Origin: Escherichia phage vB_Eco_BGP
Length of the DNA stretch: 64,000 bases
Sequence record: OZ035849
Direction: 5' to 3' (one strand)
Each line of letters opens with the position of its first letter. Position 1 is the stretch's first letter. The notes beneath the pieces were generated by a model, which saw only the letters and a list, made by a program, of their open reading frames with translations, ran no database searches and was not told the origin of the DNA. The translations under genes and the position numbers were made by a program. This document shows positions 12,688-21,098 of the stretch, piece after piece.

Positions 12688-13548
12688 ATGAAACAATACC
12701 AAGATTTAATTAAAGACATTTTTGAAAATGGCTATGAAACCGATGACCGAACAGGCACAGGAACAATTGCTTTGTTCGGTACTAAATTGCGTTGGGATTT
12801 AACAAAAGGTTTTCCTGCAGTAACAACTAAAAAGCTCGCCTGGAATGCATGCATTGCTGAGCTTCTATGGTTTATTTCCGGTTCTACCAATGTTAATGAT
12901 TTACGTCTTCGCACTCATGGCAGTCTTATTCAAGGTAAAACTATTTGGGACGATAACTATGAAAACCAAGCTAAAGACCTAGGATATCATAGTGGTGAAC
13001 TTGGTCCTATATACGGTAAACAATGGCGTGATTTCGGTGGTGTGGATCAATTAGTTGAAACTATTGATCGTATTAAAAAATTACCAACTGATCGACGTCA
13101 AATCGTTTCAGCATGGAATCCAGCTGAAATCAATCAAATGGCATTACCGCCCTGTCATATGTTCTATCAGTTTAATGTGCGTAATGGTTATCTTGATTTA
13201 CAATGGTACCAAAGAAGTGTAGATGTTTTCTTGGGATTGCCATTCAACATTGCCTCGTACGCTGCCTTGACGCATATTGTGGCTAAGATGTGTAATCTTA
13301 TCCCAGGAGATTTGATATTTTCTGGTGGTAATACTCACATCTATATGAATCATACTGAGCAATGTAAAGAAATTTTACGTCGTGAGCCTAAAGAACTGTG
13401 TGAACTTAAAATTGATTGGCCTATAGAGTTTGGAAATTGTGACACCGAAACACAGCTTTACTGGTTAACTGAATACATGAAACCGAAAGATTTTATCCTT
13501 GAAAATTATGAATCGCATCCAGCAATTAAAGGGAAAATGGCAATATGA
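12688..13548 (+). CDS. td: thymidylate synthase, uninterrupted (no intron)
   Basis: 286 aa continuous [29 protein letters not shown]...; active-site region PCHMFYQF present; same length as spliced T4 TS. Confidence 0.95.
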
Positions 13549-13808: not shown

Positions 13809-14088
13809 ATACAAATCCGACTTTGATGTTAATATTCACCGCGGTACATTTTGGGGAAATTACGTCGGTAAAGATGCTGGCAGCCGGGAGGCTGCCATTG
13901 AATTATTCAAAAAAGATTTTATACGTCGAATTAAATCCGGAGAAATAACTAAAGCACATTTAGAGCCTTTACGTGGAATGAGGCTAGGATGCACATGTAA
14001 ACCAAAGCCGTGTCATGGTGATATAATAGCTCATATAGTTAACCGATTGTTTAAAGACGATTTTCAAGTTGAGGACTTATGCAATTAA
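13762..14088 (+). CDS. hypothetical protein with Cys/His cluster ([11 protein letters not shown])
   Basis: 108 aa ORF immediately upstream of nrdA; start uncertain. Confidence 0.6.
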
Positions 14089-16343
14089 TTAATGTTATCA
14101 AAAGTAGTGGTGTTTCTCAGAGCTTTGACCCACAAAAAATTATTAAAGTTTTATCTTGGGCAGCTGAAGGAACATCAGTAGATCCTTATGAATTATATGA
14201 AAATATTAAATCTTATCTCCGTGATGGAATGACAACTGATGATATTCAGACTATTGTCATTAAGGCCGCTGCGAATTCTATTTCGGTTGAAGAGCCTGAT
14301 TATCAATATGTAGCTGCACGCTGTTTAATGTTTGCTCTTCGTAAGCATGTTTATGGACAGTATGAACCACGTTCATTTATTGACCATATTTCTTATTGTG
14401 TAAATGAAGGTAAATACGACCCTGAATTATTGTCAAAATATTCAGCAGAAGAAATTACATTTTTAGAATCAAAAATTAAGCACGAACGGGATATGGAATT
14501 TACTTATTCCGGGGCGATGCAATTAAAAGAAAAATATCTAGTTAAAGATAAAACCACTGGTCAAATTTATGAAACTCCACAGTTTGCATTTATGGCTATT
14601 GGAATGGCATTGCATCAAGATGAACCTGTTGATAGATTAAAACATGTTATCCGTTTTTATGAAGCAGTATCAACCCGACAGATTTCATTGCCAACTCCTA
14701 TTATGGCTGGTTGTCGTACTCCGACTCGACAGTTCAGTTCATGTGTTGTTATTGAGGCAGGTGATTCATTAAAGTCTATCAATAAGGCTTCCGCTTCAAT
14801 TGTTGAATATATCTCTAAACGCGCTGGAATTGGTATTAACGTTGGTATGATTCGTGCTGAAGGTTCTAAGATTGGCATGGGTGAAGTACGCCATACTGGT
14901 GTTATTCCTTTTTGGAAACATTTTCAGACTGCTGTTAAATCATGCTCACAGGGTGGAATTCGTGGCGGCGCTGCTACTGCTTATTATCCTATTTGGCATT
15001 TGGAAGTTGAAAATCTTCTCGTTTTGAAAAATAACAAAGGCGTAGAAGAAAACCGCATTCGTCATATGGATTATGGTGTTCAACTGAATGATCTAATGAT
15101 GGAACGTTTTGGAAAGAACGACTACATTACTTTGTTCAGTCCGCATGAAATGGGTGGCGAGCTTTATTATTCTTATTTTAAAGACCAAGACCGTTTCCGT
15201 GAATTATACGAAGCAGCAGAAAAAGACCCTAATATTCGTAAAAAGCGCATTAAAGCCCGTGAACTATTTGAATTGCTCATGACTGAACGCTCAGGAACAG
15301 CAAGGATTTATGTGCAGTTCATTGATAATACGAATAACTATACTCCATTTATTCGTGAAAAGGCACCTATTCGTCAGAGTAACTTGTGCTGTGAAATTGC
15401 TATTCCAACAAATGATGTGAATAGTCCTGATGCTGAAATTGGATTGTGTACTCTCTCTGCATTCGTACTGGATAATTTTGACTGGCAAGACCAAGATAAA
15501 ATTAATGAATTAGCAGAAGTTCAAGTTCGCGCTCTTGATAATCTGTTGGATTACCAAGGATATCCAGTTCCTGAAGCAGAAAAAGCTAAAAAGCGTCGTA
15601 ACCTTGGTGTAGGTGTTACTAACTATGCAGCTTGGCTGGCAAGTAACTTTGCTTCTTATGAAGATGCTAACGATTTAACACATGAACTATTTGAGAGATT
15701 ACAGTATGGACTCATTAAAGCATCCATTAAGCTCGCCAAAGAAAAAGGACCTTGCGAATATTATTCAGACACTCGTTGGTCTCGAGGCGAATTACCTATC
15801 GACTGGTACAATAAAAAGATTGACCAAATCGCAGCTCCAAAATACGTTTGTGACTGGTCGTCGCTGCGGGAAGACCTTAAGCTCTTTGGCATCCGTAATA
15901 GCACATTATCAGCACTTATGCCATGTGAGTCATCTTCCCAAGTTTCTAACAGTACAAATGGTATCGAGCCTCCACGTGGACCAGTCTCTGTTAAAGAATC
16001 AAAAGAGGGTTCCTTTAATCAAGTCGTGCCCAATATTGAGCATAACATAGACCTCTATGATTATACGTGGAAATTAGCTAAGAAAGGTAATAAACCTTAT
16101 CTTACGCAAGTAGCTATTATGCTTAAATGGGTATGTCAATCAGCTTCAGCGAATACATACTATGACCCGCAGATTTTTCCAAAAGGAAAGGTTCCAATGT
16201 CAATAATGATTGATGATATGCTATACGGATGGTATTATGGCATTAAAAATTTCTATTATCATAATACCCGTGATGGTTCTGGTACTGATGATTATGAAAT
16301 AGAAACTCCAAAAGCTGAAGATTGTTCATCCTGTAAATTATGA
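14079..16343 (+). CDS. nrdA: aerobic ribonucleotide reductase large subunit
   Basis: 754 aa, same length as T4 NrdA; ATP-cone N-terminus; SD GAGGA. Confidence 0.96.
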   Translation: MQLINVIKSSGVSQSFDPQKIIKVLSWAAEGTSVDPYELYENIKSYLRDGMTTDDIQTIVIKAAANSISVEEPDYQYVAARCLMFALRKHVYGQYEPRSFIDHISYCVNEGKYDPELLSKYSAEEITFLESKIKHERDMEFTYSGAMQLKEKYLVKDKTTGQIYETPQFAFMAIGMALHQDEPVDRLKHVIRFYEAVSTRQISLPTPIMAGCRTPTRQFSSCVVIEAGDSLKSINKASASIVEYISKRAGIGINVGMIRAEGSKIGMGEVRHTGVIPFWKHFQTAVKSCSQGGIRGGAATAYYPIWHLEVENLLVLKNNKGVEENRIRHMDYGVQLNDLMMERFGKNDYITLFSPHEMGGELYYSYFKDQDRFRELYEAAEKDPNIRKKRIKARELFELLMTERSGTARIYVQFIDNTNNYTPFIREKAPIRQSNLCCEIAIPTNDVNSPDAEIGLCTLSAFVLDNFDWQDQDKINELAEVQVRALDNLLDYQGYPVPEAEKAKKRRNLGVGVTNYAAWLASNFASYEDANDLTHELFERLQYGLIKASIKLAKEKGPCEYYSDTRWSRGELPIDWYNKKIDQIAAPKYVCDWSSLREDLKLFGIRNSTLSALMPCESSSQVSNSTNGIEPPRGPVSVKESKEGSFNQVVPNIEHNIDLYDYTWKLAKKGNKPYLTQVAIMLKWVCQSASANTYYDPQIFPKGKVPMSIMIDDMLYGWYYGIKNFYYHNTRDGSGTDDYEIETPKAEDCSSCKL

Positions 16344-16387
16344 TATAATGTGACTCATGGACGAGTCACTAACAAATGAGAAATAAT

Positions 16388-17179
16388 ATGAAATACTGTT
16401 CGGCAATAACCTACCCAGGTTCAAAACACAAATACATGGATTTTATTAATAGATTCGTATTGGGCTTTGATGATAATATAGTTTTAGATGCCTTTTGTGG
16501 CGGCCTCGGATTTTCTATGAATTGTGGTCGCCGTGTTGAGTGTAATGATATTAATTTTCATCTTATTAATATGTATAACAAGATGAAAGAGTCTTCATTT
16601 AATGATATACTCCAAATCATTGATGATTTTGGTTTAAATGACGTGGACCCTAAACCATTTTATTCTCTAGCAAAAGAATATGATAAAACCAAAAACGGGC
16701 TATATTTATATGTTCTGCATTTATTTGCATTCAGTTCGATGTTAAAATTTTCTAAAGATGATAAGTATATAGCTTCTTTTGCAAATAGAGCCAAATATTC
16801 TAGAACTTCTTTTAATAAATCACAACAAGATAAATTCGCAGCTTTTAAAAATCGTCAACATTTGTTAAGTTTTTCAAATAAATCATTCAGAGATTTAGAT
16901 TTTGAAAACAAGAACTTATTTATCGACCCACCATATCTTTCTACTAAATTTAAATATTCAGGGTGGGAAGAAAAGGATGAATTAGAATTATTAGATAAAA
17001 TTAAACGATCAAAGTCTAAATTTATTATTACTAATAATCTATCAGATGATATTGATAATAACATTCTAAAAGATTGGGCCCTTTCTAATAATTTCAAAAT
17101 TGAATATTTTAAAACCAGATACCAAAAAATATCAAAAGGCGTATCATTTCAGACTGAAGTGCTTATACATAATATGTGA
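16388..17179 (+). CDS. Dam-family DNA N6-adenine methyltransferase (putative)
   Basis: Motifs AITYPGSK, FCGGLGF, IDPPYL in the same order as T4 and E. coli Dam; alternative ATG at 16376. Confidence 0.75.
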   Translation: MKYCSAITYPGSKHKYMDFINRFVLGFDDNIVLDAFCGGLGFSMNCGRRVECNDINFHLINMYNKMKESSFNDILQIIDDFGLNDVDPKPFYSLAKEYDKTKNGLYLYVLHLFAFSSMLKFSKDDKYIASFANRAKYSRTSFNKSQQDKFAAFKNRQHLLSFSNKSFRDLDFENKNLFIDPPYLSTKFKYSGWEEKDELELLDKIKRSKSKFIITNNLSDDIDNNILKDWALSNNFKIEYFKTRYQKISKGVSFQTEVLIHNM

Positions 17180-17213
17180 TTAAATATTTAAACCTATAAT
17201 AAGAGAGAATAAT

Positions 17214-17889
17214 ATGTCTACAGTTTTTAATACAAATCCAGTTGATGTTTTAAAAGAACCTATGTTTTTTGGTTCAGGTCTTGGTATTGCACGTTATGAT
17301 ATTCAACGGCATCGAGTATTTGAAGAACTTACTGAGAAGTCCTTATCATTTTTCTGGCGTCCTGAAGAAGTAAACTTAATGATGGATGCTGCACAATTTA
17401 ATAAGCTTCCTCAGTATCAGCAAAATATTTTTACTAATAACCTGAAGTATCAATCACTTTTGGATAGCATTCAGGGTCGTGCGCCATCTGCTGTACTTAT
17501 GTCATTAATTTCAGACCCAAGCCTTGATACATGGGTTGCTACATGGACTTTTAGTGAAACTATTCACAGTCGTTCATATACTCATATCATGCGAAATCTT
17601 TATACTGATCCGTCAAAGGTATTTGATGAGATTGTATTAGATGAAGCTATCATGAAACGTGCTGAATCCATTGGGCGTTATTATGATGATGTTCTGATTA
17701 AAACCCGTGAATGGGAAAATGCTAAAGAATTTGTAGAACTAGCTAAAGAATCTCCTGATGCTGTCTTTCGTTTAAACCGAGCTATTAAACAAGAAGCCGA
17801 AGCTAAACGTGCTTTAATGAAATCTCTTTACCTCTGTTTGCACGTTATTAATGCCTTAGAAGCTATTCGTTTTTATGTATCTTTTGCGT
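17214..17889 (+). CDS. nrdB: ribonucleotide reductase small subunit, exon 1
   Basis: MSTVFNTNPVDVLKEP... reads to ...EAIRFYVSFA then hits a stop; conserved R2 sequence resumes in frame 1.09 kb downstream. Confidence 0.9.
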
Positions 17890-18980
17890 AAAATGCGCCT
17901 TTAAACGGTAACGTTTATCGAAAACTCCTTTAATTGCTGGAAAGTCCTTTATAGGAAAACTAGCAGCCAAGGTTTTGCTTGCACCTTTAATTAGTATAAT
18001 ATAAATATGATTATACTTTTAAGAGGATGCACAATTGAACTATAGAAAAATTTGGATAGATGCTAACGGACCTATACCTAAAGATTCCGATGGAAGAACA
18101 TACGAAATCCATCATAAAGACGGTAACCGTGAAAATAATGATTTAGATAATTTGATGTGCCTTTCTATACAGGAACATTATGATATACATTTAGCTCAAA
18201 AAGATTACCAGGCTTGTCATGCTATAAAGCTTAGAATGAAATATTCTCCTGAAGAAATTTCTGAATTAGCTTCTAAAGCCGCAAAATCTAGAGAAATCCA
18301 GATTTTTAATATCCCTGAAGTACGAGCTAAAAATATTGCCTCTATTAAATCTAAGATAGAAAATGGTACATTTCATCTTTTAGACGGTGAAATACAGCGT
18401 AAATCTAATTTAAATAGAGTTGCATTAGGTATACATAATTTTCAACAAGCTGAGCATATTGCAAAAGTTAAAGAACGCAATATTGCAGCTATAAAAGAAG
18501 GTACTCATGTATTTTGCGGTGGTAAAATGCAGTCAGAAACTCAATCAAAACGGGTAAATGACGGTTCACATCATTTCTTGTCAGAAGACCATAAGAAAAG
18601 AACATCAGCAAAAACATTAGAAATGGTTAAGAATGGGACCCATCCTGCACAAAAAGAAATCACATGTGATTTCTGCGGTCACATTGGTAAAGGTCCTGGA
18701 TTTTATCTAAAACATAATGACAGATGTAAATTAAATCCAAATAGAATTCAATTGAATTGTCCATATTGTGATAAGAAAGATTTATCACCATCAACATATA
18801 AACGATGGCACGGCGACAATTGCAAAGCAAGGTTCAACGACTAGTCTTCGGACGTAGGGTCAAGCGACTCGAAATGGGGAGAATCCCTCTGGGATTGTGA
18901 TATAGTCTGGTCTGCATAGTAATATGTAGCAGTTCATAAGAGAACGGGTTGAGAATTAGCGAGCTCAATCGAACATAACG
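17890..18980 (+). mobile_element. group I self-splicing intron in nrdB carrying an HNH homing endonuclease ORF
   Basis: Interrupts nrdB after a U (17889); ends in G (18980); joining exons restores frame (...SFA-C-TFNFHKNMEIMEGNAK...); contains HNH ORF; structured 3' segment. Confidence 0.85.
18035..18844 (+). CDS. intron-encoded HNH homing endonuclease, I-TevIII-like, full length
   Basis: 269 aa; HNH motif EIHHKDGNRENNDLDNLMCLSIQEHYDIH; C-terminal Cys-rich region CDFCGH...CPYCDKK; TTG start after SD AAGAGGA; TATAAATA just upstream. Confidence 0.85.
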   Translation: MNYRKIWIDANGPIPKDSDGRTYEIHHKDGNRENNDLDNLMCLSIQEHYDIHLAQKDYQACHAIKLRMKYSPEEISELASKAAKSREIQIFNIPEVRAKNIASIKSKIENGTFHLLDGEIQRKSNLNRVALGIHNFQQAEHIAKVKERNIAAIKEGTHVFCGGKMQSETQSKRVNDGSHHFLSEDHKKRTSAKTLEMVKNGTHPAQKEITCDFCGHIGKGPGFYLKHNDRCKLNPNRIQLNCPYCDKKDLSPSTYKRWHGDNCKARFND

Positions 18981-19483
18981 GTACCTTTAACTTCCACAAG
19001 AATATGGAAATCATGGAAGGTAATGCCAAGATTATGAAGTTCATTGCACGTGATGAGCAGCTTCACCTTAAAGGCACTCAATATATTATTCGTCAACTTC
19101 AACTTGGCACTGATGGCGATGAATGGGTTAAAATTGCTCAAGAGTGTGAACAAGAAGCAGTTGATATTTTCATGGAAGTTAACCGCCAAGAAAAAGATTG
19201 GGCAGTTCATTTATTTAAAGATGGCGATGTTCCTGGATTAAATACAAATAGCATGTGGAGCTTTATTGATTACTTAACTGTATCTCGTATGAAACAGTGT
19301 GGTCTTCCATGCCCGATTACCGATGCTCCGGTTAAACATCCATATCCTTGGATTCGTGAATATCTTAATTCTGATAATGTTCAATCCGCGCCACAAGAAG
19401 TAGAACTGTCATCTTACCTTGTTGCACAGATTGATAATGATGTTGATGATAAAGTTATGATGAGTTTTAAAAAATACTTTTAA
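18981..19483 (+). CDS. nrdB: ribonucleotide reductase small subunit, exon 2
   Basis: In-frame continuation ...MEGNAKIMKFIARDEQLHLKGTQ... through stop at 19483. Confidence 0.9.
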
Positions 19484-19510
19484 GGAGTGGGCCGCAAGGC
19501 CCATTTTATT

Positions 19511-21098
<1,588 letters not shown>

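Follow-up and report, generated by a model that had tools for sequence, protein, structure and literature searches.

The stretch of DNA analysed here, referred to as the window, comprises 64,000 nucleotides of Escherichia phage vB_Eco_BGP (sequence record OZ035849). In it, nrdB is interrupted by an insert of 1091 nt that carries an open reading frame (ORF) of its own. Reading of the sequence and of the ORF listing places the start of nrdB at the ATG at 17214, from which the frame runs to ...EAIRFYVSFA and then meets TAA at 17889–17891; this part encodes the first 225 residues of the small subunit of a class Ia ribonucleotide reductase. The base preceding the insert, 17889, is T (U in the RNA), and the final base of the insert is G. 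The gene is divided as follows:

17214 to 17889, + strand: nrdB exon 1, 225 codons and the opening base of codon 226 (Cys), ending in the U at the 5' splice site
17890 to 18980, + strand: predicted group I intron of the full-length RB3 type, 1091 nt, 3 nt different from that of RB3 and of the same length
18981 to 19483, + strand: nrdB exon 2, the in-frame continuation to the stop at 19483

When 17889 is joined to 18981 in silico, the codon TGT (Cys) is formed and the frame continues as CTFNFHKNMEIMEGNAKIMKFIARDEQLHL... up to the stop at 19483. The spliced NrdB is 392 aa long with zero internal stops, and it gives one Pfam Ribonuc_red_sm match (residues 33–335) that bridges the junction. A 199-nt in silico spliced junction aligns to many phage nrdB genes in one unbroken piece, and the intronless nrdB of phage JK1 is unbroken precisely between ...GCGT and GTACC..., which fixes the intron boundary. 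The first-pass annotation, made from the sequence of the window, had claimed that nrdB stops after EAIRFYVSFA and resumes in frame 1091 nt later, and that the break follows a U and the insert ends in G; the 392-aa product and the bases at 17889 and 18980 confirm this. The other features it listed were likewise found where it had placed them.

Two metagenome contigs, L013 and L014, hold an uninterrupted 392-aa nrdB with the same methyltransferase gene upstream as in the window. These are the closest intronless alleles, and in exon 1 they differ from the window at two synonymous positions, 17885 (−5) and 17888 (−2). The G at exon position −2 is a P1 pair, so the empty and occupied alleles differ exactly where exon pairing is needed. 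Past these synonymous differences at −2 and −5, no clean co-conversion tract was evident against L013 and L014.

We next compared the insert with known introns. A megablast search of 17214–19483 against 50,697 phage records matched 830 of them, 77 covering at least 80% of the query, and the introns of the window, RB3, and T4 were placed in a three-way alignment. The RB3 nrdB intron (X59078, KM606994) occupies the same insertion site in the same gene, has the same 1091-nt length at 99.7% nucleotide identity, and shares with the window the 269-aa ORF, its TTG start, the promoter, and the hairpin. Three of the 1091 nt differ, one of them coding (D23 in RB3, Y23 here), and whereas the intron diverges by 0.27%, the flanking exons diverge by 3.6%. 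The RB3 record KM606994 is annotated with a joined nrdB CDS and an internal I-TevIII CDS, the same 810 nt. Upstream of nrdB the two phages part, with mobE in RB3 and a methyltransferase gene in the window. The RB3-type nrdB intron and I-TevIII were reportedly described by Eddy and Gold in 1991. I-TevIII was biochemically characterised in 2007, when the RB3 intron was also shown experimentally to be mobile in an I-TevIII-dependent manner (Robbins et al. 2007, PMC1865063).

The T4 nrdB intron (598 nt) equals the window intron minus 491 nt and two single-base indels. It shares with the window the ribozyme core, splice sites, promoter, Shine-Dalgarno hairpin, and ORF C-terminus, and its few point differences include compensatory ones in P9. 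The deletion reaches from window position 18093/18102 to 18584/18592, between imperfect 9-nt repeats; with it the HNH motif is gone and the frame shifted, and the T4 annotation holds a joined nrdB with a 97-aa defective I-TevIII. The alignment agrees with what the first-pass annotation had cited from published work, a deleted T4 intron with a truncated endonuclease and a full-length RB3 form. The T4 intron relies on the adjacent mobE for its inheritance (PMC2790892), a neighbour that is absent from the window. In phage vB_vPM_PD112 the nrdB intron is reduced to 304 nt: the entire ORF is gone by a clean deletion between two ACAATTG repeats (18031–18037 and 18816–18822 in the window), and what remains outside the ORF matches the window but for a 2-nt indel. 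The T4 td (I-TevI) and nrdD (I-TevII) introns are likewise group I introns of nucleotide-metabolism genes in the same phage group, and their endonuclease ORFs are placed in a peripheral loop. These ORFs have middle and late promoters, and a hairpin covers their ribosome-binding site (RBS) (PMC2988022). I-TevIII is a dimer of the HNH type, in contrast to the GIY-YIG monomers I-TevI and I-TevII.

The ORF within the insert has these features:

18035 to 18844, + strand: I-TevIII ORF, 269 aa from a TTG start, with the start as in the RB3 annotation and the Robbins 2007 numbering
18044 to 18178, + strand: HNH catalytic domain, residues 4–48 (H26, H27, N39, H48), Pfam HNH_3
18665 to 18727, + strand: zinc finger 1, CDFCGHIGKGPGFYLKHNDRC, residues 211–231, by motif, with mutagenesis in PMC1865063
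18758 to 18823, + strand: zinc finger 2, CPYCDKKDLSPSTYKRWHGDNC, residues 242–263, by motif, with mutagenesis in PMC1865063
17873 to 17876, in exon 1, no strand assigned: putative I-TevIII cut positions from the in vitro mapping of Robbins et al. 2007 (PMC1865063), placed by sequence identity; it is relevant only in an intronless allele, as the recognition site is here split by the intron

The full-length HNH ORF with a TTG start and a Cys cluster had been proposed from the first reading and is borne out by the domain searches. The Pfam HNH_3 match has 48.7 bits (cut-off 24.8), and the C-terminal Cys cluster consists of two intact CX2CX12-13HX3C motifs. From alanine substitutions at H26, H27, N39, and H48, Robbins et al. 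concluded that the H-N-H residues are catalytic, and both CX2CX12-13HX3C zinc fingers (C211, C214, C242, C245) bind zinc and are required for DNA binding (PMC1865063). All eight of these mutated residues are kept in the window. Overall, 268 of 269 residues are identical to the RB3 enzyme, the one difference being Y23 for D23, so the claim that the window carries an intact form of the endonuclease gene holds to within one residue of an experimentally active protein. By its sequence the ORF is full-length I-TevIII. A sequence search of I-TevIII against solved structures gave no match at E ≤ 0.01. Pfam FlgM (anti-sigma-28) gave a marginal match to the linker at residues 74–114 (26.2 bits, cut-off 25), which we rejected as probably due to chance.

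By tblastn, at least 87 phage records carry 80% or more of the ORF. The carriers include Tequatrovirus, Gelderlandvirus (S16), and Dhakavirus (Bp7); in Mosigvirus (AV114) the form is truncated. The exact window protein, with Y23, is found on 164 public contigs, in one source under the name 'homing endonuclease [Escherichia phage AV121]'. The intact form is not rare.

Upstream of the ORF we identified four elements that could control its expression:

17976 to 18000, + strand: putative middle-promoter-like element, TGCTTGCA ... TATAAT, read from the sequence
17980 to 18031, + strand: RNA hairpin predicted by folding to bury the Shine-Dalgarno sequence in read-through nrdB transcripts
18000 to 18007, + strand: T4 late promoter motif TATAAATA; T4 and RB3 have the same letters here
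18021 to 18027, + strand: Shine-Dalgarno sequence AAGAGGA, 7 nt upstream of the TTG start

The late promoter motif and the Shine-Dalgarno sequence had both been claimed upstream of the ORF and were found there, at 18000–18007 and 18021–18027. The hairpin, which pairs the Shine-Dalgarno sequence, has a folding energy of −14.7 kcal/mol (z = −4.64), and 0 of 200 shuffles were as stable; an RNA starting just past TATAAATA is essentially unstructured (−1.4 kcal/mol). The late promoter and the RBS-sequestering hairpin are identical in sequence to those of T4, and RB3 has the same promoter, Shine-Dalgarno sequence, and hairpin. TATAAATA occurs 20 times in the window, where chance would give about 9, and is weak evidence on its own; the motif is meaningful only in its conserved context, shared with T4 and RB3. 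The stretch at 17976–18000 is annotated as a predicted middle promoter in fPS-2. A sigma-70 promoter and terminator scan of 17100–19700 gave no enrichment over shuffles; the sigma-70 scan is uninformative for T4 middle or late promoters. Intron ORFs are driven by middle and late promoters, and for I-TevIII the read-through transcripts are translationally silent, while late transcripts start within the hairpin and so free the RBS (review PMC2988022). This T4-type arrangement, which would provide temporal control, is present in the window, where the late promoter is nested in the hairpin that masks the Shine-Dalgarno sequence.

Just upstream of the late promoter, GCACCTTTAATTAG (17981–17994) is alike at 10 of 14 positions to the start of exon 2, GTACCTTTAACTTC (18981–18994). 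It has been suggested that I-TevIII may repress its own promoter by binding an operator that resembles one half of the homing site (PMC2988022), and the likeness fits this putative operator.

One alternative is that the intron splices but that its copy of I-TevIII is non-functional or unexpressed, which would leave the element immobile by itself, like that of T4. The Tyr for Asp at residue 23 lies three residues ahead of the catalytic His pair, the start codon is TTG rather than ATG, and decayed copies of the ORF are frequent among relatives, for example in T4, G8, AV114, U5, and PD112. However, alignment shows an uninterrupted full-length ORF, free of frameshifts and stops, that keeps the eight residues defined by mutagenesis. 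The TTG start is also used by RB3, and promoter, Shine-Dalgarno sequence, and hairpin match those of RB3 exactly. Y23 occurs in fPS-2 I-TevIII as well, and the uniformity of the Y23 protein across the 164 contigs argues against a dead allele, since a dead allele would be expected to decay. We regard a defective or unexpressed endonuclease as very improbable.

The secondary structure of the insert was mapped by hand and includes P1, P2, P3, P4, P5, P6, P6a, P7, P7.1, P7.2, P8, P9, P9.1, and P9.2 as well as the RBS hairpin. The elements of the predicted ribozyme core are located as follows:

17886 to 17898, + strand: P1, exon GCGU (17886–17889) with intron GCGC (17895–17898), a U17889·G17895 wobble at the splice site
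17902 to 17917, + strand: P2 hairpin with a GUAA loop; A-U to G-C compensatory change in phage S16
17925 to 17930, + strand: P3 5' strand, partner 18876–18881
17935 to 17965, + strand: P4-P5-P4' domain, hand-mapped pairing
17966 to 17983, + strand: P6 and P6a 5' strands, partners 18821–18833, with the ORF looped out of P6a
18821 to 18833, + strand: P6a and P6 3' strands, within the final codons of the ORF
18839 to 18843, + strand: P7 5' strand GACUA, partner 18903–18907, overlapping the ORF stop codon at 18842–18844
18844 to 18870, + strand: P7.1 (UUCG loop) and P7.2 hairpins, hand-mapped pairing
18876 to 18896, + strand: P3 3' strand and P8 hairpin, from hand-mapped pairing and the Rfam alignment
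18903 to 18907, + strand: P7 3' strand UAGUC, hand-mapped pairing
18912 to 18970, + strand: P9 (GUAA loop), P9.1, and P9.2 hairpins; A-U to G-C compensatory change of P9 in T4
18980 to 18980, + strand: terminal G of the intron (omega G), from the sequence, with the boundary given by intronless alleles

In the window, 89 of the 89 mapped pairs are standard, and P7 forms a pseudoknot with P3. The last nine codons of the ORF double as P6a', P6', J6/7, and the P7 5' strand. Across 7 distinct relatives, pairing is kept in 99.7% of cells, compared with 37–43% when the partners are slid by 1–3 columns. There are two compensatory double changes (P2 in S16 and P9 in T4) together with several wobble-compatible single changes. 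This covariation is thin because the available copies are all approximately 97% identical, and it is supportive of the fold but no proof alone; the P3–P8 core helices are invariant and therefore give no covariation evidence in either direction. P7.1 and P7.2 agree with the subgroup IA2 to which the T4 introns are assigned.

The covariance-model search that the first-pass annotation had proposed was also carried out. Rfam at the gathering threshold gave no hit on the whole window. Under relaxed settings, RF00028 matches 18689–18929 with 33.9 bits (E = 1.5e-06; gathering score 50), in an alignment that is correct in its J6/7-P7-P3'-P8-P9 half and mis-threaded through the ORF in its P1–P6 half. 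The window falls below the gathering score because the ORF splits the core, and the T4, RB3, and G8 nrdB introns fall below it from the same cause. The ORF-less PD112 intron reaches 68.6 bits (E = 1.1e-15), over the gathering score of 50; its core and that of the window are the same but for an indel of 2 nt in the P6a loop. The earlier claim of a group I intron is thus upheld by the ORF-less sibling, the splice-site U·G pair, and the terminal G, and by its sequence features the insert belongs to the group I intron family. Guanosine-dependent self-splicing is experimentally established for the T4 copy of the nrdB intron, and with a core identical in sequence to that of T4, the window intron would be expected to splice in the same way.

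It is conceivable in principle, but exceedingly improbable, that nrdB is disrupted, a pseudogene, or two genes around a non-splicing insert (a free-standing endonuclease cassette, a group II intron, or an intein), as might be read from the many genome records that annotate the nrdB halves as separate CDSs and from the missing Rfam match at the gathering score in the window, since this is opposed by the RF00028 scores of the ORF-less sibling and the window (68.6 and 33.9 bits), by the presence of the splice-site U·G pair, the terminal G, and P1–P9.2, and by the T4 version of this sequence, a classic case of a spliced intron in nrdB, with a joined CDS annotated in T4, RB3, and U5. The intein was rejected separately: a stop lies directly behind exon 1 and the insert is out of frame, so it is not an intein.

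Taken together, we consider it highly probable (about 95%) that 17890–18980 is the full-length, RB3-type, self-splicing group I intron of nrdB in a T4-like phage, with an intact I-TevIII. The window sequence holds nothing that contradicts this explanation. Splicing, endonuclease activity, and homing in the window phage are expected from the near-identity to T4 and RB3; the biochemistry of I-TevIII was done on the D23 protein of RB3, and the window allele is Y23. The intron RNA would fold, bind guanosine, and excise itself from the nrdB pre-mRNA, so that NrdB would be made normally. In early and middle read-through transcripts the endonuclease would stay untranslated because the hairpin covers the Shine-Dalgarno sequence, and late transcripts, starting just after TATAAATA and lacking the 5' arm of the hairpin, would allow I-TevIII to be translated. 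In an intronless recipient, recombinational repair would copy in the intron along with part of the exon sequence beside it.

The nrdB intron was found in four Tevenvirinae genera, on otherwise differing nrdB backgrounds. This spread, together with the low divergence of the intron relative to its exons, is consistent with recent horizontal transfer. The identical methyltransferase neighbour is present next to both empty and occupied nrdB. Deleted forms can be traced to sequences that the window retains. In T4 and G8, 491 nt were lost between the imperfect repeats GAAGAACAT and GAAGACCAT, which are still in the window at 18093–18101 and 18584–18592, 491 nt apart; after the deletion, T4 retains the A variant of the repeat and G8 the C variant. 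The two ACAATTG copies that form the ends of the PD112 deletion are likewise still present, 785 nt apart. In G8 and U5, 6 nt are missing from the late promoter. As a whole, the mobility data agree with the classic cycle in which a homing intron invades, decays, and is lost.

The element in the window is the RB3 nrdB intron, which is already known and common in sequenced phages. Its practical value is in annotation, as many pipelines split nrdB in two and label the endonuclease hypothetical. The gene is annotated as a joined CDS in T4, RB3, and U5 and as two separate CDSs in many other records, the latter through an artefact of the pipelines. With the exact splice coordinates and the structural map given here, nrdB can be annotated correctly as a joined CDS. 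Natural nrdB alleles have the intron at full length, partly deleted, without its ORF, or not at all, a series that shows the life cycle of a homing intron and to which this locus contributes a further case.

Several neighbouring features were also noted. Directly after the nrdB stop, a GC-rich hairpin (GGGCC GCAA GGCCC) with a T-rich run lies at 19487–19515 on the + strand and overlaps the start of denA; it is a terminator in the fPS-2 annotation and was missed by a simple terminator scan. The thymidylate synthase gene td (12688–13548, + strand) is a single uninterrupted ORF of 286 aa, so this phage is without the td intron and I-TevI, both of which are present in T4. The nrdA gene (14079–16343, + strand) is uninterrupted as well, encoding 754 aa, and in fPS-2 and 236Ecol005PP it is split by an endonuclease gene.

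The gap between nrdA and nrdB, the position of the homing endonuclease mobE in T4 and RB3, is filled by a gene at 16376–17179 (+ strand) for a 267-aa D12-class N6-adenine DNA methyltransferase (Pfam PF02086, 71.6 bits). Its protein is approximately 31% identical to the canonical T4-type Dam, and its DNA matches 8 of the 50,697 phage records, the best at 91%. This rare second Dam-like (D12) gene is the least ordinary, if mildly unusual, feature of the locus. It is a speculative and rather unlikely notion that the cassette itself travels with the nrd homing hot-spot as a mobile element, carried along by co-conversion after nrdB is cut by I-TevIII or mobE, and that it might also modify sites relevant to the nucleases or to host defence. 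The identical methyltransferase gene lies beside an intronless nrdB in two metagenome contigs and beside a split nrdB in another.
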